Source of the DNA: Squalus acanthias
Taxonomy: Eukaryota
Direction: 5' to 3'
Assembly: GCA_030390025.1 (NCBI GenBank)
Contig: CM059432.1
Location: forward strand, 96,164,001 to 96,228,000
Length of the DNA: 64,000 nucleotides
In this document: piece by piece, positions 28,827 through 60,029 of the stretch
Layout of the letters: each line of letters starts with the position of its first letter
Numbering within the stretch: the first letter of the stretch is position 1
Position numbers and translations under genes: made by a program
Notes under the pieces: model-generated
Told to the model about the DNA's origin: nothing
What the model saw: only the letters and a program-made list of their open reading frames with translations
Databases searched by the model: none

Positions 28827-30012
28827 TCATTGGAATCAGAGTCTGATGACCCATTCATGGACAGCCCATCTGGAAGGGAAATTGTCTGCCTGCCTCCTCC
28901 CTCCCTCCTCTTCCTCTTCCTCTTGCACCTCGTTCTCTTCCTCATCCTCCTCCTCCTCTTCCTCATCCTCCTCCTCTTCTCCCTCCTCTCCCTTGTCCTC
29001 CTCCTGAGGTGGTCCCACAATCCCTGGTGGCAAGGGCGGCGCCCTCATGATGGCCAAGTTGTGAATCATGCAGCAGACCAGCACAAAATGGGAAACCCGC
29101 ACCGCCGAGTACTGGAGGGCTCCACTCGGGCGGTCAAGGCAGCGGAACCCTTGCTTTAGTAGCCCAATGGTCTGCTCGATGATGTTCCTGGTGGAAGCAT
29201 GGCTCTCATTATATGAGTGCTGGGCACAAGTGTTGGAGATGCGGAGGGGAGTCATGAGCCAGGTGGAGAGCAGATACCCCTTGTCTCTGAGCAGACACTC
29301 TCGAGTTTGCTGTGGCGACTGGAAGATTGCTGGCACACCGGACTGACGCAGGATGAAGAAATCATGGCTGCTGCCAGGATAGCAGCCATTGACATTGAGG
29401 AATCGCTGTGTGTGGTCGCACACCACCTGCACATTAAGTGAGTAGTAGCCTTTGCGGTTACGGAAGATCTCATGATTGTTATGCGGCGCCTGCAAAGCCA
29501 CGTGTGTGCAGTCAATGGCACACTGCACCATGGGAAAGCCCGCTATCCTGGCAAAGCCACATGCACACCCCACCTGCTTCTCTCTCCTCAGAGAGAAGGC
29601 AACGTAGTCCCTTCTCCTGGTGTAGAGAGCCTCTAGGATGCAGCGATGGACAGCGAACTGTGAGATGTTAGCTATGTCTCCTACTGGTGAAGAAACTGAG
29701 GGCTATGGTGACCTTGACTGCCACTGGGAGAGCCGTGTTTGCCCTGCTCTCAGGCCACAGGTCTGGTTGCAGGAGGTGGCAGATTTCTGTGACCACCTCC
29801 TTGGTGAAGCATAGCCTCCTAATACACTGCTCCTCACTTCAGTGGAGGTAGAAGTGCTGTTGGAAGACCCTAGGTGGGTAAACCCTCCTGTTGAGAGCCC
29901 TCATGGCCCTCCTCCTCCTCCCTCTGTGTGCATGCACCCGTCATCCTTACTGCCTCCGCTTCCTCTGCTGAAGATCCTGGAGCATGAGGTCGACTGCCAG
30001 TATAGTCCCCAT
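28827..30012 (-). pseudogene. Harbinger DDE transposase, full span but frameshifted
   Basis: ATG at 30012; AIDCTHV, RKGYYSLNVQVVCD, YPGSSHD, DKGY, RNIIEQTIGLLKQGFRCL, CCMIHN. Confidence 0.9.
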
Positions 30013-30061
30013 GACTGTGAGCAAGTGTTGTGAGCAGAAGTCTTTAAAAAATAATGAAGGT

Positions 30062-31737
30062 TGTAAGGGGTTCTGTGTCGTGCTTGTATCGCAGACGGTG
30101 CTGGTGCGGGGTTAGGCCTTCATTGCCTAATACTACTGCTTGCTCTGGTCTCCGGCCAGCCTTGTTGCAATAAGCACCTGTGAGTGGTTCGACCCACTCG
30201 CCCTTACGGTTCTAACACTGGACTTAGGTGCGAGAGCAGTAATGCAGAGAAAAACTCAAATAGACTCGGTTGAATAGTACGAAATGGAAATCTTTATTGC
30301 ATAGCGTCTAAAATCATGAAGTACATATCATAGGCACAAATTAACGATAGTACAAGTATACATACATTCATAAAGCTTGGTCTATGGTAATGAAGAACGC
30401 ACGGCACATCGTAAAAAGGGGAACACATTATACTTTATCCTTAATAAAACCACCCTCCCCTATCAATACCTACACTACATCTAGATTTGTAGGATCGGGA
30501 AACATGCTCACCACTCGTGATACTTCGAAGAATTTTAAAGTGAGGCGCTCGGCTCGTTTCGCTGCAGCGCCTGACTGTCACGTGTTTTGAGGGGTCTCTG
30601 TACCCCACTTGTTTACTTTTGCTGCTGCTGCAAGCAGGCTGGGCTCCCCGTTGTCATGAAGAACTCGACAGTGCTCAGGCCCGGTTCGAAGAAGAGTCTT
30701 CCTGTGTCTGACACCGGTTGCCGGTAGAATTCAAAGAAGAGTCTTTGACCAGTTCGTGCAGTAACCTGTAGAGTTCAAAAATGGTCTATATATTTTCGGG
30801 CGCGGTCGGGGTTTACTGACCGCGGCGGCACGTGCATTCTTCTTCTTCTCTTCTCATCTCGTCTCGTCTCGTCTCTTCGGGCCTTCGGGTCCAGAACACC
30901 GTTTACCGACGCTCGGGATGGTGCACCCGGTTACCGGCCTTCGTCGAGGCGGCTCGTTCCGTTCGAGCTCCACCCAACATTCGAATAACCGTCCAGTGCG
31001 GCTAAAAGTCCAGAGTCAACAGTCCAGAGAAACAAGAGCACGAATCAAGCGAATAAGAATCGAATCAAGGGAATAAGAGAATAAGAGCCGAATCAAGCGC
31101 GCGATGGACATTTGTTGTCTATAGTTATAGTGTTGTGTTCCCTTATCTCCCGCTCAAATCTTAATGTTTGTCCTTTGTGAAATATTGGCGCTCAAAACTC
31201 CCAGCATGGGGTGATTCTTGTCTTTAACGGGTTTCGGTAGCACCTGAGACTGGTCAACTACCCGTTAATGTTTTCCCCATTGTTGAACCGGCTCGGAGCC
31301 TCCCTGGCTGGGTTTTGGGGGCCCCCGAATACTTGTTTAATCACCCGAGAATGGCTCTCTCATTGTAGAGCCGTTGGGGTATTTGCGTATTGATGTGTCT
31401 GGATGGGCCTTCGATTGCCCAGTACAATGGTCCTTACTTGTGCATGGAAAACGATTCCAGCACTCATATCTTATGCTATTGTTTCGAATGCAAACATGTT
31501 GCATCCTGTCTTTATCAATGTCTGCTGAGTATTATCCAATCTTATACTGAAATGTTTATTCGAACGCCATCTTGTCTGCCCACTGAAAATTCTGGAAGCT
31601 TCTGTCACGATGCGTGGTGGCCATTTTACAGGCTTCTGTGTCCTTTTTAATCATGACAGCATTTCGTTTAAATAAACTGATTAAACGAATCTGTTTCTCT
31701 CTCGTTATTTTGAATCGCGATAATTGCGAATTTTACA
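30062..31737 (-). repeat. 3' LTR (1676 bp)
   Basis: Direct repeat of 37642-39317; about 15 substitutions counted by eye, no indels. Confidence 0.97.
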
Positions 31738-31746
31738 GTCCCTCCT
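31738..31746 (-). promoter_or_regulatory. Polypurine tract
   Basis: Minus strand AGGAGGGAC immediately before the 3' LTR TGTAA. Confidence 0.75.
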
Positions 31747-32131
31747 GTTGATGCGAATAACTCTGCTTATCGTATCAATTAAAAGTGGTGGTGAGCAAAA
31801 TTATCCCGATTCTCCACATCCAAACACTCCCTTAACTTAAACTATCTATGGTCTCCATGCCGTCCTCATTTCCCGGGGAAATTACATTGTTTAAAACTTG
31901 GATAAACCGTAGGCAGTATTGCCTTTAAACTTACATTTCGCATACGCCTTCCAGGTGCAACAGGCCGATGCCTCTCGCACCACCTGTATATGCATTTTTA
32001 TTATACAAGGAAAAATAATCAAACAACCATTTTAAAAAATACAAAGTTCCAAACTTAGTTACATATCTTCATAACTAACAATCAATTGCAAAAACACACA
32101 TGGTAAAATGGAGCGGCGTCATCCTGGCCGT

Positions 32132-33619
32132 TCACGTGGAACTTTCCTCGTTCACGCGCACGTAACGTTCTCTCCACTCTCCTGTGTTCTCCTGCTTTGT
32201 GAGGCGTCTGCCTCTCTTGCAGTGCACGACCAATAGGTACACTACTATTATGACTTGGCACACAACTAAAATGTGGGAGGCTATCCTGATCCATGAAGGA
32301 ACTTCAATATTGGTGAACAGGTCCCACCACGGTGGGATCACTATGTCCAAAATTTCTGTCCCTATCTCGACAGACTTTTGTTCCAGGGTGTAAAAATGTT
32401 TTTGTGATACCGCAACGGCTTTCAAAAGCTTGGTGAGGTGCTCAGGGAGAGGGGGAATGATGTATCCGAAATGCGTGACGAATCGCTGCAAGTCGGTGAA
32501 ATTCTCTTTTACTGTGAGATGAACAGTGGATGGTTCAGGGATCGGGACAATTCGCTGTTGTGCCACTTGAACTTCAACCCTGGGTTTAAAACAGAAACTG
32601 CTGTCACTCACCGGACACCGGCTGCGGTTTCCATGCTGGTAGTGTTGCGCTGCCGTGGTAACGCAATATGTTCCACCCCCAATGTATGCCACCTGCGGAT
32701 GCACATGATCTTGTGTTATTGCTTCCATGGTGCAATTCATGGGCTTGGCGCCAGCCGTTCTGAACCCGCATTGTGGTGTTAAAAAGGCATTCAAGTGCTT
32801 GGGACACAGTATTATGTGTGCTCCCCGGCCATGACAACCCGATAGGTCGGTACCTGTCATCGTTTGCTCCCAGCGGATGACGTAAGGTGGGACTGCTGCG
32901 TAGCGAATGTGGGCTCCCCCCTGAATGACACCAATGTTCTCTACCCGATACACCGGGGCGGGCTTTGCTGTGTCGCCCAAGACCGGCATACGTAGTACTA
33001 TACCCATGATGGTATGGTTTGACCGTCCGCAGTCCACGGGGACTGGGTATGCCTCTGAGGCTAGCCTGAGCTGGCACGGGCTTAATGCGTTCTGAAAAGG
33101 GTGGAGCGCCTGCAGGTGTTTGTTACTTATCCAGGACGGGACCAAACCTTGTTTTAAATCCTCCAAATTACTGCAGCCCTCGCCCAGTAACCACGCCCCG
33201 TATAGTACGCACACCTCGTTCTGCGCAGCTTGATCGGATGCATTCCGATCTTCCCTAATCAGGGCATTTACCGTTCTCGCATACTTCTCCAGCTCTGCTA
33301 TAATCTCGTTTAAGTGTAGTGTCATGGCCTGGTCCTCATGTAACTCAGACCCTACTACCTTGTTTTCGCTTGTGAGGATGCTTTTTAATTGTGTTTTTAA
33401 ACCATTGATCTGGGTCTGCAGCTCCACGTTGTCTAGAGCGTTGACCACAGATGTTCCTGTATTAAAGGCGGTGAACATATCGTTCACAATACCCCTTCTT
33501 TGTCTCCCCACCTGACCCAAAACTTCGTGTGGTGTGGTGTACAAGCTTGTTTTGTCAATCTCTGCAAAATCAAACTCGTAGAATTGTCTGAACATGTTTG
33601 TCAACAGGACCTGGTACAA
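32132..33619 (-). CDS. env: Env C-terminal part: F-like class I fusion glycoprotein
   Basis: RQRR furin site (33494-33505), putative fusion peptide GIVNDMFTAF, heptad repeat, Cys-rich region, second heptad, W-rich segment, TM IASHILVVCQVIIVVYLLVV, tail with YVRV. Confidence 0.85.
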   Translation of the reverse strand: MYQVLLTNMFRQFYEFDFAEIDKTSLYTTPHEVLGQVGRQRRGIVNDMFTAFNTGTSVVNALDNVELQTQINGLKTQLKSILTSENKVVGSELHEDQAMTLHLNEIIAELEKYARTVNALIREDRNASDQAAQNEVCVLYGAWLLGEGCSNLEDLKQGLVPSWISNKHLQALHPFQNALSPCQLRLASEAYPVPVDCGRSNHTIMGIVLRMPVLGDTAKPAPVYRVENIGVIQGGAHIRYAAVPPYVIRWEQTMTGTDLSGCHGRGAHIILCPKHLNAFLTPQCGFRTAGAKPMNCTMEAITQDHVHPQVAYIGGGTYCVTTAAQHYQHGNRSRCPVSDSSFCFKPRVEVQVAQQRIVPIPEPSTVHLTVKENFTDLQRFVTHFGYIIPPLPEHLTKLLKAVAVSQKHFYTLEQKSVEIGTEILDIVIPPWWDLFTNIEVPSWIRIASHILVVCQVIIVVYLLVVHCKRGRRLTKQENTGEWRERYVRVNEESST

Positions 33620-34483
33620 TTATTCCGTCTCTTTGGGGCACCACTCTGGTAACCGCACCTTGGTGAGATTTAGAATCACCGAAGCCACCGCGTAATGTAC
33701 CCCTTGAAATAGTATCTGGTCCGTTGGGACCAGTACCAAACCATTCCCGGGCCCCTTAGTGGCTTTAGGGCACCCTTCCTCCTGAGCCAAAACCACCGGA
33801 ATCGTGGGCGGAGCCTTGCGTGGGCGCGTGATGAGTTCAGTGGCGTTTACCGGGATCGGGGAGAATGGGGCTCCGCACCCCTTTGTGCTGACATCCCACC
33901 TCATCCCTTTCCCGTTATCCTGCCACTGGTGTACGAAAAATATGGATATACCCTTGGGGCAAACGTACTTCGATCCCCACATACAAACATATATTCCCTC
34001 ATCCGGTTCCCACCATTTGTCCCAACAGACTTTCAATTGTCCGTTAGTCCCCGTAATTGTCCGATGGGTATTGTTACCCAATCGCTCCCACTCAACCGAG
34101 GAATTTCTCATAGTCTTGCTTAACTTCCATAACCAGCACCCTCGGCTCAATGGGACCTTCCCATTGCATGTCAAACAATTCCTTTTGCCGACGGTGACGC
34201 TGATTCTGGGTGCAATGATCCTCACTCTGGGGCACAGTAAAGAAGTCTCTTTGTAGGCAAATCCGGATGCGCTGAAGTATTCCGTTGAATTCGTTCCCAG
34301 CCATCCTGGCCACCTTCCCTTGTGGAAATAAGTGGCGGTCTCCTCAGCCTTTCGCTCCCCGGTCCCATCCGTCGCGATGGGGGCCGTGTCCCCGGAGCAA
34401 CCAAACACAACGACATCCTTAGTGAGGCCCCGATAGGCCAATCCATATCCGATCGTTGCGAGCACTATCAGAATCCTTTCCAT
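33620..34483 (-). CDS. env: Env N-terminal part: signal peptide plus Ig-like domain; in frame with 32132-33619 across one TAA
   Basis: MERILIVLATIGYGLA signal; CLTC...WLWK...DEGIYVC; several N-x-S/T sites. Confidence 0.8.
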   Translation of the reverse strand: MERILIVLATIGYGLAYRGLTKDVVVFGCSGDTAPIATDGTGERKAEETATYFHKGRWPGWLGTNSTEYFSASGFAYKETSLLCPRVRIIAPRISVTVGKRNCLTCNGKVPLSRGCWLWKLSKTMRNSSVEWERLGNNTHRTITGTNGQLKVCWDKWWEPDEGIYVCMWGSKYVCPKGISIFFVHQWQDNGKGMRWDVSTKGCGAPFSPIPVNATELITRPRKAPPTIPVVLAQEEGCPKATKGPGNGLVLVPTDQILFQGVHYAVASVILNLTKVRLPEWCPKETE

Positions 34484-34757
34484 CTTTCCTGGTTCCTGTG
34501 ATCAGATAAAATGATGTAGCCAGCCTCCCAAGAGTCTCTGGCTTTTGTGAAGGGTGAGCTGGTCCATGACCTCGTCTCACGTATAACGACATGTATGCTG
34601 GATAGACTTTAACTATTCCTATCACTAAAACTCCCATCACTTTACCATTTACCTTTAAAATTAAACTACAAACTTACCAAACTTACAAACTTAAACTTAA
34701 ACTTATAAACTTATAAACTTATACTGTACAGCGCCGCCCGTTCCCAGGGCGGCCTAC

Positions 34758-35837
34758 CTAAATTCTGTGAAGGCTGCCACGAGCTTTTCCCAGTGGTGGG
34801 AGGGCACTGACCCCTTCCTTTGATCTGCCACAGCCTGTCGCCGCTGCGCTGGGACTGGGATCTCCCTGGGCTGCCTTGAACTTGAACTTACGCCTGGGGG
34901 CGTACGGGGGACTTGACCACGACTTCCTGGGCTGGGGTGTCCGACCTGACCTACGGAGGGCTACTTTGGGCAAGATTTCCAGGGCCGACGGACCAGGAAC
35001 CAAGACTTCCACCGTCACGGCCTGTGGTCCTACCACAGCCGCTGGCTCCATCTCCCCTGGCTCCGCCCCCCTGAACTCGGGATTTGCAGCTTTTGGTTCC
35101 ACCCTACTTGGCCCAGTATGTGGTCCTCCACTCGCAATCCCTACCTCCCCCAAGGGCAAGACTTCCAGGGCCGACGGATCGGGTATCGAGACTTCCACCG
35201 TCACGACCTGTGGTCCTACCACAGCCGCTGGCTCCGTCTCCCCTGGCCCCGCCCCCCTGGGCTCGGGATCTGCAGTTTCTGATTCCACCCTGTGTGGATC
35301 TCCACTCGCAGCCCCTATCTCCCCTGAGCTTGAGTCGAGGACGAAACTTTCGTCCTCCGACCCCAGCACCTCTCCGATCGGGTCACTACCTTGGTCGAGC
35401 TCCTCGAGCTCTTCCTCATCTGAATCCCAACCCCAAGAAAAGATCCTACACTTTTCTAGAATGTCCTCTCCCCTCAAGCAGGCTGCTTTACCGGTCTGTG
35501 TGCCTTGCGGTCCTACCCGGGGCTGCGAGTCCCCACTCGCAGGTTTGGCCCCTCCCCTGAGACAGGCCACCGCCCCTGCTTGTGCCTTCTGTGAAATCTC
35601 GCCTGCTGGAGGCTGCAGATTTCTATTCTGTTTTAAATCCTCATACTCCCTGCTCCTGGCTACCCTGTAGGCTGCTTTTATGTCTCTAAGCTGCCCTTCC
35701 AGCCCGTCTACCTTCCCCATTAAACGGGCGTTCTCCTCCCGCAAGGTCTGCTCTTTTAACCTGGCCTCCTTACAGGAGACCACCTCCTGTGCGCGTCTTT
35801 CAAGGGGACACAGGCAGGCAGGCTGCACCGGTTCCAG
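34758..35837 (-). CDS. ORF2: Gag-like coiled coil, acidic/Pro-rich tandem repeat, basic tail; in frame with gag, no ATG at its start
   Basis: Open from the codon after the gag TGA for 359 codons; no protease, RT, RNase H or integrase motifs seen. Confidence 0.7.
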   Translation of the reverse strand: MEPVQPACLCPLERRAQEVVSCKEARLKEQTLREENARLMGKVDGLEGQLRDIKAAYRVARSREYEDLKQNRNLQPPAGEISQKAQAGAVACLRGGAKPASGDSQPRVGPQGTQTGKAACLRGEDILEKCRIFSWGWDSDEEELEELDQGSDPIGEVLGSEDESFVLDSSSGEIGAASGDPHRVESETADPEPRGAGPGETEPAAVVGPQVVTVEVSIPDPSALEVLPLGEVGIASGGPHTGPSRVEPKAANPEFRGAEPGEMEPAAVVGPQAVTVEVLVPGPSALEILPKVALRRSGRTPQPRKSWSSPPYAPRRKFKFKAAQGDPSPSAAATGCGRSKEGVSALPPLGKARGSLHRI

Positions 35838-37637
35838 TCAGAAGCCTGGGTTGTATGGGGCTGTTGCTACCTCCCCGTGCGAAATCATAAGAGACCGCAT
35901 GGCTCCTAACATTGATTCTATCGCATCGGGATGGATAGGCACACCAGCTCCTTTCTCAGAGACAGGCGCTTGGGTTCGGACTGCGGGAGCTCTGTCCCTG
36001 GGGTCCTTCCAGGGATTCCTGCAGTTTTTACGCCAGTGACCTGTCTTCCCGCACCCGTAACAAACACCACTGGTTTGGGGGGCGCGATTTCCCTCCTGAT
36101 GCCACTCTTTCTGAGCCGGAGCTGCGGGCTTTGCCTCATGCACCTTTCCCTTAAGGGGACGCGCTCCCATGCTCCTAGTGTTCCGATACCCTATGGTGAG
36201 TCGATTTAGGACAGACTCCTCTGTTGTGGCGGGGTTAGTGGGATCAAACCACGCTCTGGCCTGCTCCCTGACGGCTGGCAAGCTGTTGGCTACTAAACAC
36301 CTGAGCCAATGAGCTTTCCCGGCGCCGTTCAGAAAGTTGCGCGCTGGCGCACCTGGGCAGCTACGCTGGTATACTGGCCACAGCCTGTGGGCGAAAACCT
36401 TCGGGGGTTCCCCCTCCATCTGTATGGTTTGACTCAATCTGACGAACTTACCTTCGTCATCCGCCCCTAACACTTCTAGGACCTCGTCCCTTAACTCCTC
36501 ATAGGTTTTATTTCCCCTCTTGCTCTCGTCTGAGAGACACTGAAGGATCAAGCTATCTAATGAGAACAGCAACATTTTGGTCTTTTCCACATCGTCGCAG
36601 CCATTAATTGCTGCGGTCTGTTCTACCTCCCTAAAGTGTACGGAAGGGTCGTCTGATTCGGACAGCTTCCGTACATGGCTAATCATTGCTCTCAGCTGGT
36701 GTGAGCTGTGAGGCAATACAAGCTGGTCCAGGACATCCCCGTCCTCCCCATTTTCCCCATTCGGGCCTCTCTTGTGACCTCGGAGCGGACACATCGGTCC
36801 CGGGCTCGACTCTACCTCCAGGGATTGTCCTACCTCGGGGACCTCCTTTTCTATTTCCACCACTTCCTCCCTTTCCCAGGTTGCCGAATAGCTGGGTGAT
36901 GCGGAGGGCACAGTGGCAAATACCTCCTCTGCTTTGTCTGGTAGGGATTTTGGGAATTCCCTACCCACCTGTGGCTGGTTTGCTGACGGGCTGATGAGGC
37001 ACACCATGCCGTTTGCCGTATTCATGGCCTCTCTTAGGTTCCCTAACTCCTTCTGGCAAACACTGTCATCGGCTCCCTCATGCCTATCCTCGAGGGCCAT
37101 CTTATATGCCGCCCTAACTCCCTTCAAGCTTTCTTCCAGGGCTTTTATCTGGGTAGCTAGGCGGGCACACCGTTCTCTAATCCTACCCTCGTTTAATTTC
37201 GCTTCCGTGACCTGACACTCTAGGTAATCAATTTTAGCCTCGTGGTGGTTGGCTACTATCTGGCGTTCCTGATGTAACGCATTCAAGGATGCAATGAGTT
37301 TCTGTCCCCCCGTGACCTTTAGCTCCATCTCAACTTCCAATTCCCTGATCTGAGCTGCCTGTGCTACAATGACCTGGTCCGAAAGTTGGACTTGCTTCTT
37401 GTAGCACATCAGCCAGACCACTTTCTCCACCGACTTCTTATGCTCTTTACTGCCTGTCCATTTGATGGCTGCGTCTAGCGGACGCTTATCCATCAGTAGG
37501 TCACTTATCCACCTTTTGGTTAAGTTAACCTTCCCAATCACATAGTCGGCTACCCTCTCATCCATCACATTTCGCCGATTCACACCAGGGTCTAAAACAT
37601 TACTCTCTCGCTGCCAGTGTCCTGCCGCGGTCGCCAT
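35838..37637 (-). CDS. gag: Gag polyprotein (coiled coil, capsid-like region, one CCHC knuckle); probable start at 37565
   Basis: 599 open codons; CYGCGKTGHWRKNC at 36021-36062; LSQTIQMEGEPPKVFAHRL is an MHR-like motif. Confidence 0.9.
   Translation of the reverse strand: MATAAGHWQRESNVLDPGVNRRNVMDERVADYVIGKVNLTKRWISDLLMDKRPLDAAIKWTGSKEHKKSVEKVVWLMCYKKQVQLSDQVIVAQAAQIRELEVEMELKVTGGQKLIASLNALHQERQIVANHHEAKIDYLECQVTEAKLNEGRIRERCARLATQIKALEESLKGVRAAYKMALEDRHEGADDSVCQKELGNLREAMNTANGMVCLISPSANQPQVGREFPKSLPDKAEEVFATVPSASPSYSATWEREEVVEIEKEVPEVGQSLEVESSPGPMCPLRGHKRGPNGENGEDGDVLDQLVLPHSSHQLRAMISHVRKLSESDDPSVHFREVEQTAAINGCDDVEKTKMLLFSLDSLILQCLSDESKRGNKTYEELRDEVLEVLGADDEGKFVRLSQTIQMEGEPPKVFAHRLWPVYQRSCPGAPARNFLNGAGKAHWLRCLVANSLPAVREQARAWFDPTNPATTEESVLNRLTIGYRNTRSMGARPLKGKVHEAKPAAPAQKEWHQEGNRAPQTSGVCYGCGKTGHWRKNCRNPWKDPRDRAPAVRTQAPVSEKGAGVPIHPDAIESMLGAMRSLMISHGEVATAPYNPGF
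37619..37636 (-). promoter_or_regulatory. Primer-binding site complementary to tRNA-Arg
   Basis: TGGCGACCGCGGCAGGAC matches the 3' 18 nt (GTCCTGCCGCGGTCG+CCA) of vertebrate tRNA-Arg(TCG) as I recall it; 5 nt from the LTR. Confidence 0.85.
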
Positions 37638-37641
37638 TATC

Positions 37642-39317
37642 TGTAAGGTGTTCTGTGTCGTGCTTGTATCGCAGACGGTGCTGGTGCGGGGTTAGGCCTT
37701 CGTTGCCTAATACTATTGCTTGCTCTGGTCTCCGGCCAGCCTTGTTGCAATAAGCACCTGTGAGTGGTTCGACCCACTCGCCCTTACGGTTCTAACACTG
37801 GACTTAGGTGCGAGAGCAGTAATGCAGAGAAAAACTCAAATAGACCCAGTTGAATAGTACGAAATGGAAATCTTTATTGCATAGCATCTAAAATCATGAA
37901 GTACATGTCATAGGCACAAATTAACGATAGTACAAGTATACATACATTCATAAAGCTTGGTCTATGGTAATGAAGAACGCACGGCACATCGTAAAAAGGG
38001 GAACACATTATACTTTATCCTTAATAAAACCACCCTCCCCTATCAATACCTACACTACATCTAGATTTGTAGGATCGGGAAACATGCTCACCACTTGTGA
38101 TACTTCGAAGAATTTTAAAGTGAGGCGCTCGGCTCGTTTCGCTGCAGCGCCTGACTGTCACGTGTTTTGAGGGGTCTCTGTACCCCACTTGTTTACTTTT
38201 GCTGCTGCTGCAAGCAGGCTGGGCTCCCCATTGCCATGAAGAACTCGACAGTGCTCAGGCCCGGTTCGAAGAAGAGTCTTCCTGTGTCCGACACCGGTTG
38301 CCGGTAGAATTCAAAGAAGAGTCTTTGACCAGTTCGTGCAGTAACCTGTAGAGTTCAAAAATGGTCTATATATTTTCGGGCGCGGTCGGGGTTTACTGAC
38401 CGCGGCGGCACGTGCATTCTTCTTCTTCTCTTCTCATCTCGTCTCGTCTCGTCTCTTCGGGCCTTCGGGTCCAGAACACCGTTTACCGACGCTCGGGATG
38501 GTGCACCCGGTTACCGGCCTTTGTCGAGGCGGCTCGTTCCGTTCGAGCTCCACCCAACATTCGAATAACCGTCCAGTGCGGCTAAAAGTCCAGAGTCAAC
38601 AGTCCAGAGAAACAAGAGCACGAATCAAGCGAATAAGAATCGAATCAAGGGAATAAGAGAATAAGAGCCGAATCAAGCGCGCGATGGACATTTGTTGTCT
38701 ATAGTTATAGTGCTGTGTTCCCTTATCTCCCGCTCAAATCTTAATGTTTGTCCTTTGTGAAATATTGGCGCTCAAAACTCCCAGCATGGGGTGATTCTTG
38801 TCTTTAACGGGTTTCGGTAGCACCTGAGACTGGTCAACTACCCGTTAATGTTTTCCCCATTGTTGAACCGGCTCGGAGCCTCCCTGGCTGGGTTTTGGGG
38901 GCCCCCGAATACTTGTTTAATCACCCGAGAATGGCTCTCTCATTGTAGAGCCGTTGGGGTATTTGCGTATTGATGTGTCTGGATGGGCCTTCGATTGCCC
39001 AGTACAATGGTCCTTACTTGTGCATGGAAAACGATTCCAGCACTCATATCTTATGCTATTGTTTCGAATGCAAACATGTTGCATCCTATCTTTATCAATG
39101 TCTGCTGAGTATTATCCAATCTTATACTGAAATGTTTATTCGAACGCCATCTTGTCTGCCCACTGAAAATTCTGGAAGCTTCTGTCACGATGCGTGGCGG
39201 CCATTTTACAGGCTTCTGTGTCCTTTTTAATCATGACAGCATTTCGTTTAAATAAACTGATTAAACGAATCTGTTTCTCTCTCGTTATTTTGAATCGCGA
39301 TAATTGCGAATTTTACA
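37642..39317 (-). repeat. 5' LTR (1676 bp)
   Basis: Direct repeat of 30062-31737, adjacent to the PBS. Confidence 0.97.
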
Positions 39318-39903
39318 AGGTGTTCTCCACTTGCAACAACACTCTCTGTTACCTTATAACCTTAAAAGAAGTTAATAAAACTGGTGGAGTTGCAGAAAGT
39401 AGCAGAGCCAGTCAAACTGCATAACCATCTCAGGTGCAACTGATTGCTGATGATCCCTTTAAATTTCACTGCTGAAGCCTCCTTCCTGCTGTTGAACGCT
39501 TGCTCTGCCCATTGTTGTTTAGGCATGCTGGTAAGTTGAACGGTGAAAACCAATGGTGCAGATTGGGCATCAAGTGAGCGTATCACACTCACTGATGTTA
39601 CAATCTGGTTAACTTCAATTCCTCCAGCGATCGCGTTTATCGGCAGCGCAACTGGCCCTCGCAAAATGGCGGCCGCCGCGGGACCTGCTGGCGGAAGAGC
39701 ACCGGCTGCTGTTTAACGCCATTTCATGCAGGTAATGGGTGGCGTTAAACATCCAAATTTTTTGCCCAGAATCTATTTGGGTAGAGTTAAGGAGCAGAAG
39801 AGGAGCTGTTACGCTCCTGGGTGTGTACTATAGACCATCAAATAGTGGGAAGGAGATGGAGGAGTAAATTTGCAAGCAAATTTCACAGAGATGTAAAAAC
39901 AAT

Positions 39904-56785: not shown

Positions 56786-57638
56786 TATATCTCAATCAAG
56801 TTAGCCAAACACAATTTGCCTTTAACAAATTCATGCTGGCTGTCATTGATTAACTCACTTTGTTTCAAGTTACAATTAATCTTGTCCCAAATTATAGTTT
56901 CTAAAAGTTTTCCCACCACTGATGTTAGGTTGACTGGCCTGCAGTTACCTGGTTTATCCCTGTCCTCTGTTTTGAACAGGAGTGCAATATTTGCAATTCT
57001 CCTGTCCTCTGGCACCAGTCCCATGTCTAAGGAGGATTGGAAGATTGTGACCAGAGCCTCTGCTATTTCCACCCTTACTTCCCTCAGCAACCGAGGATAC
57101 ATCCCATCCGGACTTGGTGACTTTTCTACTTTGAGTGCTGCAAACCTTTTAAATACCACCTCCTTATCTTTTTTTATCCTATCCAATTTCTCTACTTCCT
57201 CCTCCTTTACTGTGAGAAGTCGCACAACACCAGGTTATAGTCCAACAGCTTTATTTGAAATCACAAGCTTTCGGAGCGCTGCTCCTTCGTCAAGTGAAGT
57301 GAAGAGATGCATATAGGCACAGCATATATAGTCAGAGAACACTGCCAGATGATTACAGTTAATCTTTCTAACTGCCCTTTATCACACCTCGGCAGAGAGA
57401 TAATCACGGCAATCAAAGGTGTGGATGGTGTCCAAACAGGTCAGTCAGGAAAACATTACATCAAAGACAATGAGGTGGGGTCACAAGGGGTCAAATGTGG
57501 CAGATGCTGGAGTCTGTATGGAAAACAAAAAACTTTTTTTGCTGGAAATCACAGCAGGTCCGGCCGCATCTGTGTAGAGAGAACAAGCCAATGACGACTC
57601 GAGTCTGGATGACTCTATGATACTCCAAGATAGAGTCC

Positions 57639-60029
57639 ATGTTCTCAGCCTGTGCTCAGGACACAGCAGACCAGCTACGAGACACCTCCAAACAGATGAG
57701 GCAACGGAACTACGCTGCCTACATGCACACCAAGAACAGGAAGCTTGAGAAACTCGGCATCAGGACCAGCAGCAATGAAGCCTCCCCCGGTACCACGGTT
57801 GCAACCACAGGGAAGTCCATCGTCAACTTGTCCGACCACACCCTTCAACCAGACGAAATCGAAGATCTCAGCCGAGGGCTCAATTTCTGCTCCACCACCA
57901 AAATGGACCCCATCGGTCTCGCGGCAGACACAGAGGAATTCATCAGGAGAATGAGGCTCTGGGAATTCTTCCACGAATCCCAAGATGTCAGCAGCGAACC
58001 CAATGAGACAATCAATGATCCGGAACAGCAGACAGAGGGACCCGCAGTGCAGCAACTGAAGAAGAAAGAGTCAAATTGGACCCCTCCGGAGGGTCGCTGC
58101 CCTAAGCTAGACATATATGCTCAAGCTGTCAGCAGATGCATCAACGCCAGATTCATCAGCCGCACTCACAAGACAGTCCAGAATGTCACCCGAGCACAAC
58201 GCAACGCTATCCACGCTCTCAAGACCAACCGCAACATCGTCATCAAACCAGCGGACAAAGGAGGAGCCATCGTCATACCGAACAGAATGGACTATTGCAA
58301 AGAAGCATACCGACAACTGGACAACCAGGAACACTACAGACAGTTATCCGCAGATCCGACCAAAGAACACACCCGCCAACTCAATAGACTGATCAAGACC
58401 TTCGATCCAGACCTTCAAAGCATCCTACGCGCTCTCATCCCACGTACTCCCCGCGTGGGAGACTTCTACTGCCTCCCAAAGATACACAAAGGCAACACAC
58501 CCGGACGTCCTATCGTATCAGGCAACGGAACCCTGTGTGAGAACCTCTCTGGATACGTCGAGGGCATCCTGAAACCCATCGTACAGGGAACCCCCAGCTT
58601 CTGTCGCGACACTACAGACTTCTTACAGAAACTCAGCACCCACGGACCAGTTGAACCAGGAACACTCCTCACCACGATGGACGTCTCGGCACTCTACACC
58701 AGTATCCCCCACGATGATGGCATCGCTGCGACAGCCTCAGTACTCAACACCAACAACAGCCAATCTCCAGACGCCATCCTACAACTCATCCGCTTCATCC
58801 TTGATCACAAAGTCTTCACCTTCGACAACCAGTTTTTTACCCAAACACATGGAACAGCCATGGGGACCAAATTCGCACCCCAATACGCCAACATCTTCAT
58901 GCACAAGTTCGAGGAAGACTTCTTCGCTGCACAGGACCTCCAACCAACGCTATACACCAGATACATCGACGACATTTTCTTCCTATGGACCCACGGCGAA
59001 GAATCACTGAAAAGACTACACGATAACATCAACAAGTTCCATCCCACCATCAAACTCACCATGGACTACTCCTCAGAATCGGTTTCATTCTTGGACACAC
59101 GAATCTCCATCAAAGACAGACACCTCAGCACTTCACTCTACCGCAAGCCCACGGACAACCTCACGATGCTCCACTTCTCCAGCTTCCACCCTAACCACGT
59201 TAAAGAAGCCATCCCCTATGGACAAGCCCTGCGAATACACAGGATCTGCTCAGACAAGGAGGAATGCGATGGACACCTACAGACGCTGAAAGACGCCCTC
59301 GTAAGAACGGGATATGACGCTCGACTCGTCGATCGATAGTTCCGACGGGCCACAGTGAAAAATCGCATAGACCTCCTCAGAAGACAAACATGGGACACAA
59401 CCAACAGAGTACCCTACGTCGTCCAGTACTTCCCCGGAGCGGAGAAACTACGCCATGTTCTTCGCAGCCTTCAACATGTCATCGATGACGATGAACACCT
59501 CGCTAAGGCCATCCCCACGCCTCCACTATTCGTCTTCAAACAGCCGCCTAACCTCAAACAGACCATCGTTCGCAGCAAATTACCCAGCAACCATGACACC
59601 ATACAGCCCTGCCACGGCAACCTCTGCAAGACATGCCAGATCATCAACACAGATACCATCATCACACGTGAGGATACCACCCACCAGGTACATGGTACAT
59701 ACTCATGTGACTCGGCCAACGTTGTCTACCTCATACATTGCTGGAAAGGATGCCCCGGAGCATGGTACATCGGCGAGACCATGCAGACACTGCGACAACG
59801 TATGAATGGACACCGCGCAACAATCACCAGGCATGAGTGTTCCCTCCCAGTCGGGGAACACTTCAGCAGTCAAGGACATTCAGCCTCCGATCTTCGGGTA
59901 AGGGTTCTCCAAGGCGGCCTTTGAGACACACGACAACGCAAAATCGTCGAGCAGAAACTGATAGCCAAGTTCCGCACCCATGAGGACGGCCTCAACCGGG
60001 ATCTTGGGTTCATGTCACGCTACATGTAA
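57639..60029 (+). pseudogene. Penelope RT plus GIY-YIG endonuclease, single frame with two nonsense codons (59337 TAG, 59922 TGA)
   Basis: IKPADKGG, LPKIHK, DVSALYTSIP, GTAMG, RYIDD; VVYLI...YIGET; GLN at the C terminus. Confidence 0.95.

Follow-up and report, generated by a model that had tools for sequence, protein, structure and literature searches.

In this study, we analysed a provirus located at positions 30062–39317, on the minus strand, of a 64,000-nt stretch of the Squalus acanthias genome (assembly GCA_030390025.1, contig CM059432.1, 96,164,001–96,228,000; hereafter the window, whose numbering is used throughout). The element probably represents a helper-dependent lineage, akin to satellites or defective interfering genomes, of an endogenous retrovirus (ERV) related to snakehead retrovirus (SnRV). 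Two forms of one family reside in the same genome in similar numbers and share the type of long terminal repeat (LTR), the primer-binding site (PBS), gag, env and a tail, which in the complete form extends the integrase (IN). In place of the pol enzymes, the pol-less form has a cassette of diverged gag sequence that keeps the frame with both the preceding stop codon and the integrase tail behind it. Sequence is exchanged between the two forms, and gag and env are under constraint.

The window copy follows the plan LTR-PBS-gag-ORF2-env-polypurine tract (PPT)-LTR and is flanked by a 4-bp target-site duplication (TSD), as an initial annotation of this DNA had described (Table 1). Its internal region comprises 5,904 bp, with the PBS beginning five bases past the 5' LTR. 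A six-frame scan detected neither YxDD nor the protease motif D[ST]G, the integrase motif HHCC or GPY/F, and only one CCHC knuckle; Pfam searches (E≤1) with its four open reading frames (ORFs) returned no pol domain. Thus, the reported absence of pol enzyme motifs from the internal region is confirmed. The frames follow each other in the order gag (599 aa), in-frame TGA, ORF2 (359 aa) and env (783 codons). ORF2 had been counted as a gene of its own; however, it is in frame behind gag after a single TGA and is a remnant of the pol frame, and therefore not a separate gene. The element was also called young and env-bearing. Env sequence is indeed present, but one in-frame stop breaks the frame, leaving no open env in this copy. 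The LTRs are 99.1% alike, differing by 15 mismatches and no gap (14 transitions, 8 at CpG). For this divergence of 0.9%, a rate of 2.2e-9 per site per year implies an age of about 2 Myr, and the rate of 2.2e-10 assumed for sharks (PMC4422223) one of about 20 Myr, so that 'young' holds in a relative sense only.

To place this copy in its genomic context, the 3.7-Gb assembly was searched with the internal region, yielding 8,493 candidates, of which 29 were scored; 30 loci were returned. Among these, 17 are pol-less (L024 and L030 apparently being one place counted twice) and 13 carry RNase H and/or integrase sequence, which precedes the same tail and env as in the pol-less copies. Upstream of three pol-bearing loci we found gag (partial in one case), the TGA, protease (PR), reverse transcriptase (RT), tether and RNase H (RH). 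By Pfam, the complete sibling contains PR, RT, two RNase-H-like domains and IN, and its gene order reads gag-TGA-PR-RT-tether-RH-IN-tail-env. Genome-wide counting of 22- to 24-nt markers (at most one mismatch; 0 matches for a reversed-pattern control) gave 1,503 matches for the cassette, 1,744 for the pol-bearing junction and 3,394 for env. That is, cassette and pol junction sum to 3,247, which is near the number for env. The junction variant closest to the window copy accounts for 255 marker matches. Within the first 190 Mb of contig C1, counting exact matches only, an env marker is located within 12 kb downstream of 21/46 cassette sites, 18 of them at 2.6–2.8 kb, and of 27/34 pol junctions, mostly at about 6.1 kb. 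Some pol-less copies form head-to-tail arrays, found on contig C3 at 64.28–64.32 Mb (six junction matches, 6.4-kb period) and on C1 at 143.65–143.67 Mb (three cassette matches, 7.7-kb period), and the copy counts are therefore slightly inflated.

Six of ten pol-less copies examined have their own distinct 4-bp TSD pair, while the ends of the other four were not resolved. LTR pairs from 11 copies are 97.0–99.7% alike over the parts compared, which in one case amount to only 95 bases, and a pol-less subfamily that is 10–13% diverged has the same plan. Together with the marker counts, the distinct TSDs show that the pol-less junction recurs at independent loci and is not a private deletion in one copy. 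Lack of pol enzymes, many independent TSD-flanked insertions and a helper with shared cis signals identify the pol-less form as a non-autonomous LTR element and support the initial proposal that Pol is needed in trans.

What occupies the place of pol can be read from ORF2. Its last 260 or so residues equal the extension behind the integrase of the sibling. Although the first 12 residues resemble a pol start, they stem, like the tip of gag, from a diverged source. Mid-ORF2 there is a coiled coil homologous to Gag; it and the Gag of the element itself are 40% identical across 43 aa. A longer version of the cassette matches the coiled coils of Gag relatives at 36–46% identity (E down to 5e-15) and retains a short piece of the capsid start. 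As the enzyme region is filled by a Gag-derived fragment, pol has been replaced rather than merely deleted. The distance from the stop to the tail is a multiple of three in 12 of 13 pol-less loci selected at the DNA level, with five lengths occurring (237, 264, 267, 300 and 438 nt). For comparison, 6/46 shared indels are in frame across the env-to-LTR and LTR stretch. In 8/20 loci selected at the protein level, a second tail follows the cassette in frame. The two tails lack DNA similarity and are 34% identical at the protein level around the motif RRSxRTPQP. To our mind, this motif is reminiscent of arginine anchors that bind nucleosomes, the CENP-C motif for example, a likeness for which a literature search gave no support. 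At two loci (L055 and L074) the stop between gag and cassette is lost and the frames are fused, L074 having a different repetitive tail. A stop-free antisense frame of 299 codons covers ORF2 (34771–35670, plus strand); it has no early ATG and no Pfam match, and similar frames of 250–380 codons are present at many sibling loci as well.

Exchange between the two forms is most evident for env. In a tree of 30 env copies the pol label requires 10 changes as compared to a shuffled mean of 10.0, i.e. the classes are fully intermixed, which is expected from co-packaging and recombination. In the gag tree, two pol-bearing gags nest among 16 pol-less ones. The tail tree displays partial clustering by class (4 changes versus 8.4 when shuffled), left unsettled by the bootstrap. 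Among shared variants, the ratio of nonsynonymous to synonymous polymorphism (pN/pS) is 0.10 for env in the pol-less class and 0.29 for pol-less gag, relative to 0.13 for IN as positive control and to 0.89 and 1.27 for two non-coding stretches. A PSAPPSY stretch, which overlaps the PSAP and PPxY budding motifs, is present in 11/17 gags; the window copy departs from it.

How might such an element propagate? The pol-less RNA would make its own Gag and Env and be packaged with helper Gag-Pol, often beside helper RNA. Reverse transcription would be primed from a tRNA-Arg, and the helper integrase would insert the resulting DNA with a 4-bp TSD. Template switching could carry the cassette onto new gag, env and tail backgrounds. 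The strong constraint on env suggests that spread occurs largely by reinfection via enveloped particles. The least certain step is readthrough of the UGA, which would yield a Gag-ORF2 protein from which the tail peptide might be cut; this would explain why the ORF2 frame has been kept. A more elaborate version is put forward tentatively, as we consider it rather doubtful in its entirety. Here, the lineage would be a long-lived satellite, whose mobile, frame-keeping pol-replacement cassette moved between helper backgrounds (the two tails being so little alike) and whose readthrough product delivers a Gag-like coiled coil and a chromatin-binding tail peptide into particles, all within a lineage combining an SnRV-like Pol with an Env of the Loki/paramyxovirus F type bearing a captured immunoglobulin (Ig) head.

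Several points speak against helper dependence of this kind. Co-packaging, reinfection, splicing and readthrough are inferences; four sequencing contig runs (run type guessed) covered 30/30 bins, but are uninformative on expression and splicing. The loci were chosen by similarity to the window copy and are thus not a random sample. Constraint on ORF2 is weak: pN/pS is 0.38 for the first 68 cassette codons (p=0.01, one of 10 regions tested), 0.62 for the whole cassette (p=0.09), 0.80 for the tail (p=0.31) and 1.00 for the second tail. Scored singly, just 5/12 shared ORF2 gaps are in frame, which we ascribe to the aligner having split compound junctions. Since env is shared through recombination, its constraint may derive wholly from the helper pool. 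Furthermore, the stop context differs from the UGA-CUA type in the pol-less form, and folding of the RNA downstream of the stop gave no clear or consistent signal (z −1.3, +0.8 and −2.1). For the second tail a pol-bearing partner was not encountered, 15/15 upstream pieces being cassette, and the search for a pol-bearing partner of the diverged subfamily's tail gave 0 exact matches.

Some of these observations would suit a pure cis parasite, for which merely LTRs, PBS, PPT and packaging signal matter and whose ORFs are open through youth and recombination with the helper. Env and gag pools common to the helper, a tail without amino-acid constraint and the 7/18 pol-less loci, window copy included, without an open env of at least 775 aa are all in line with such a parasite. 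We nevertheless regard it as unlikely, given that all five junction lengths are in frame and that env of the 10–13% diverged subfamily differs from the window copy by 82 silent versus 53 changing codons. Moreover, shortening would be expected of a parasite, yet about 1,500 copies retain the cassette. The opposite extreme is a mutual system, in which the pol-less form provides structural proteins needed by or beneficial to the pol-bearing form. Copy numbers near 1:1 agree with it, as does an env open over at least 775 aa in 11/18 pol-less versus 6/13 pol-bearing loci, albeit this difference is small. However, the pol-bearing form has gag and env of its own, and its env is equally constrained (pN/pS 0.10), making mutual dependence very improbable. 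Since the helper is complete with all genes, dependence is one-way, and the pol-less form is a satellite rather than half of a bipartite virus; the initial idea of one half of a complementing two-component system is not supported.

The identity of the helper lineage bears on a further explanation, namely that we are dealing with a lokiretrovirus in a cartilaginous fish. The database Pols nearest to that of the sibling are amphibian and coelacanth proteins at about 50% identity, with one at 90%; the nearest relatives are annotated as NYNRIN-like, and NYNRIN is presumably the same gene as CGIN1. Loki IN is reported to be closest to CGIN1 (PMC7947760), which would fit a lokiretrovirus, as would Env motifs matching Loki-Xtr Env by eye, the Gag with its N-terminal coiled coil and the dual RNase H (tether and RH) of the sibling. 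The latter, however, is common to all retroviruses and hence does not discriminate. The RT points elsewhere. In a quick tree of 76 rows (6/81 matches left out for short coverage; SnRV absent from the tree), the family falls with retroviral RTs (SH-aLRT 100), apart from 58 Gypsy-type rows, and groups with amphibian and coelacanth elements (89). We also compared the sibling RT by eye and hand count over 251 columns with the RT alignment in the supplement of PMC7947760. It reads LPQGF, sharing LPQ with all 25 retrovirus rows examined, while 24/24 Loki rows have PFG[YL] and none has LPQGF. Identity is highest to SnRV (about 112/251, 45%), followed by feline foamy virus (89/251, 35%) and Loki-Lch (82/251, 33%). 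With LPQG in place of PFG[YL] and SnRV as nearest relative, the family is SnRV-like, not Loki; judged by sequence, the sibling RT belongs to the SnRV-like group within Retroviridae proper. This agrees in part with an outcome that the initial annotation had named as refuting its view, namely sibling RTs falling among classical ERV clades. SnRV likewise has a coiled-coil Gag with a single knuckle and suppresses the stop between gag and pol (PMC2717909). The lokiretrovirus assignment of the initial annotation is thus largely refuted, and we deem it highly improbable. A screen for lokiretroviruses that included three cartilaginous fishes found none of them positive (PMC7947760), and SnRV-like ERVs are known from elephant shark (CmiERV lineage I; clade Huo) (PMC4422223). 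Troyka elements were ruled out by their reported CG..CG ends and 3-bp TSD (PMC12440569).

The family nevertheless departs from its known relatives. With SnRV and SnRV-like ERVs it shares the coiled-coil Gag with one zinc knuckle and a pol that continues the gag frame past a suppressed stop (PMC2717909, PMC13517186). Unlike SnRV, its stop reads UGA-CUA-G instead of UAG-GGC, its Env tail is short as compared to 136 residues (PMC12193657), no 3' accessory ORF was seen, an extension of about 260 aa follows IN, and thousands of recent copies coexist with a pol-less partner. It resembles lokiretroviruses (PMC7947760) in the dual RNase H and, at the motif level, in an Env of F-type appearance that is built from signal, RxRR site, fusion peptide, coiled coil and transmembrane segment; in contrast, its RT is not Loki and its Env carries in addition a head of about 230 aa that includes an Ig-like domain. 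An N-terminal Ig-like domain followed by a Pro-rich linker is also found in gamma-type Env proteins with an IgV-like receptor-binding domain (RBD-C; bioRxiv 10.1101/2024.03.17.585361), but here the head sits on an F-type core without CX6CC. Foamy virus Env is F-like, too (PMC11468914).

The Env protein consists of a signal-like N-terminus, the Ig-like head, a Pro-rich linker, a putative F-type fusion core, the transmembrane segment and a short tail. The C-terminal two-thirds hold a furin site, a fusion-peptide-like stretch, heptads and the transmembrane segment, and lack a CX6CC motif. Language-model features score 0.93–0.96 against clusters of Gypsy env, Baculo_F and Fusion_gly, though recognition stays below threshold, and several motifs align by eye with Loki-Xtr Env. 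These features agree with the resemblance to Loki/F-type fusogens noted initially. Searches of Pfam and PDB sequences gave no F-protein match, a profile search matched only Niban, due to host sequence in one row, and an AlphaFold model from a six-row alignment was unusable (pLDDT 29). Residues 90–170 look like an IgV domain: all 25 of 25 weak PDB matches are Ig domains, and Pfam Ig_3 was hit at E of about 0.01 in 3/3 sibling Env segments, although the window copy's own segment had no Pfam match. Atlas features resemble TLV_coat. Homologue searches with Env returned 3 and 1 matches, all from cartilaginous fishes (the four named ones from skate and sawshark). Viral contigs yielded no relative. 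A frog Pol relative (P0003) carries, at residues about 1200–1290, a signal-like stretch followed by a SLAM/CEACAM-like Ig domain. Its Env probably begins there, and Ig heads may be general in this lineage. Sawshark gene models joining Env pieces to the host genes Niban, zinc finger and cadherin-like (P0093, P0094, P0126) are probably annotation chimeras.

For Gag, the structural model (pLDDT 74) has a long helix at the N-terminus, and its capsid-like core is matched best by the murine leukemia virus capsid (E 1.5e-3, weak) and by epsilonretroviral Gags (E down to 6e-8). Named Gag relatives come from catshark and hornshark in five of six cases. The PBS and the gag start codon have bases in common, for which primer annealing and initiation would be in competition. 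The PBS itself encodes the Gag N-terminus MATAAG (37619–37637, minus strand), and this start recurs in distant Gag relatives (P0097, P0102, P0108), one of them named from catshark. The PBS complement combined with a T-loop pattern has 431 exact matches genome-wide, of which one was fetched and recognised as tRNA by Rfam (E 1.2e-9); its anticodon reads TCG (Arg) by eye. ARAGORN made no call on this piece, which is truncated at its 5' end and contains an insert behind the anticodon. Genes for the TCG-anticodon tRNA carry an intron-like insert after the anticodon and form long tandem arrays with a 1,623-bp period on contig C26 at about 39.0–42.2 Mb (L091). The arrayed tRNA would be the primer tRNA of this ERV family.

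Table 1. Features of the provirus in window coordinates.
Feature	Position	Strand	Remarks
TSD, left copy	30058..30061	.	AGGT, 4 bp
3' LTR	30062..31737	-	1,676 bp, TG..CA; AATAAA at LTR position 1440
PPT	31739..31746	-	short, directly before 3' LTR
env	32132..34483	-	in-frame stop at 33620-33622
Env transmembrane segment	32207..32302	-	predicted from hydropathy
RQRR furin-type cleavage site	33494..33505	-	from sequence and by-eye likeness to Loki-Xtr Env; followed by fusion-peptide-like stretch and heptad repeat
Ig V-like domain of Env	33974..34216	-	about residues 90-170; weak but consistent matches, from sibling copies
ORF2 tail (C-terminal extension of sibling integrase)	34758..35553	-	acidic, Pro-rich; one internal 183-bp duplication; RRSxRTPQP motif
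pol-replacing cassette	35554..35837	-	about 12 pol-start-like codons, then coiled-coil fragment of diverged Gag
In-frame TGA between gag and ORF2	35838..35840	-	TGA-CTG-G; TGA-CTA-G in pol-bearing sibling
gag	35838..37637	-	long N-terminal coiled coil, retroviral capsid fold, one CCHC knuckle
PBS	37619..37636	-	18 nt, complementary to host tRNA-Arg (anticodon TCG); gag start codon overlaps its first bases
5' LTR	37642..39317	-	1,676 bp
TSD, right copy	39318..39321	.	AGGT

Further mobile elements surround the provirus. A long interspersed element, which we take to be of CR1/L2 type, occupies 16712–20500 (plus strand) and has a GDSL-esterase ORF1 and an endonuclease-RT ORF2 with one stop. A Harbinger-type DDE nuclease frame (28836–29702, minus strand) lies just left of the provirus, and an RT frame of Penelope-like appearance (57621–59339, plus strand) to its right.

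Pol-less gag(+env) families are already known. Non-autonomous Athila elements of Arabidopsis (PMC2410132) would be the closest working analogue of the one-way satellite proposed here: they are pol-less, carry gag and env, are under purifying selection, are mobilised in trans and have recombination links to autonomous families. In contrast to the present case, Athila belongs to plant Ty3/Gypsy, its pol-less and pol-bearing members are separate families rather than two forms of one recombining family, and here pol is replaced by an in-frame cassette. The zebrafish BHIKHARI elements Bik-1 and Bik-2 are likewise young, pol-less and thought to be partner-dependent; however, in the accessible part of that report Bik-2 is stated to lack env, and Bik-1 has a single gag ORF, with no partner identified for it (bioRxiv 10.1101/2024.03.25.586437). 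Our literature search, with subscription journals and Repbase outside its scope, found no description of this family, of pol-less elements on a comparable scale, of the pol-replacing cassette or of an SnRV-like element with an F-type Env. As far as searches reach, new features are the in-frame Gag-derived cassette on different tails, the near parity with the helper and the combination of an SnRV-like Pol with an F-like, Ig-headed Env.

Trans complementation is a recognised route of ERV spread (PMC10435555). With its roughly 1,500 pol-less and 1,700 complete members, this family documents on a large scale how helpers and satellites have behaved in the germ line of a vertebrate. These numbers suffice to examine whether defective ERVs supply proteins or act solely as parasites, as has been asked of Athila. 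Screens based on RT miss nearly half of the family, and an F-like Env in a shark is by itself insufficient for the lokiretrovirus label. PMC7947760 leaves open four scenarios of how retroviral Env arose, and the pairing of an F-type Env with an SnRV-like Pol is relevant to them. If this pairing is true, F-type envelopes would reach into Retroviridae beyond foamy viruses, either by ancestry or by exchange with lokiretroviruses.

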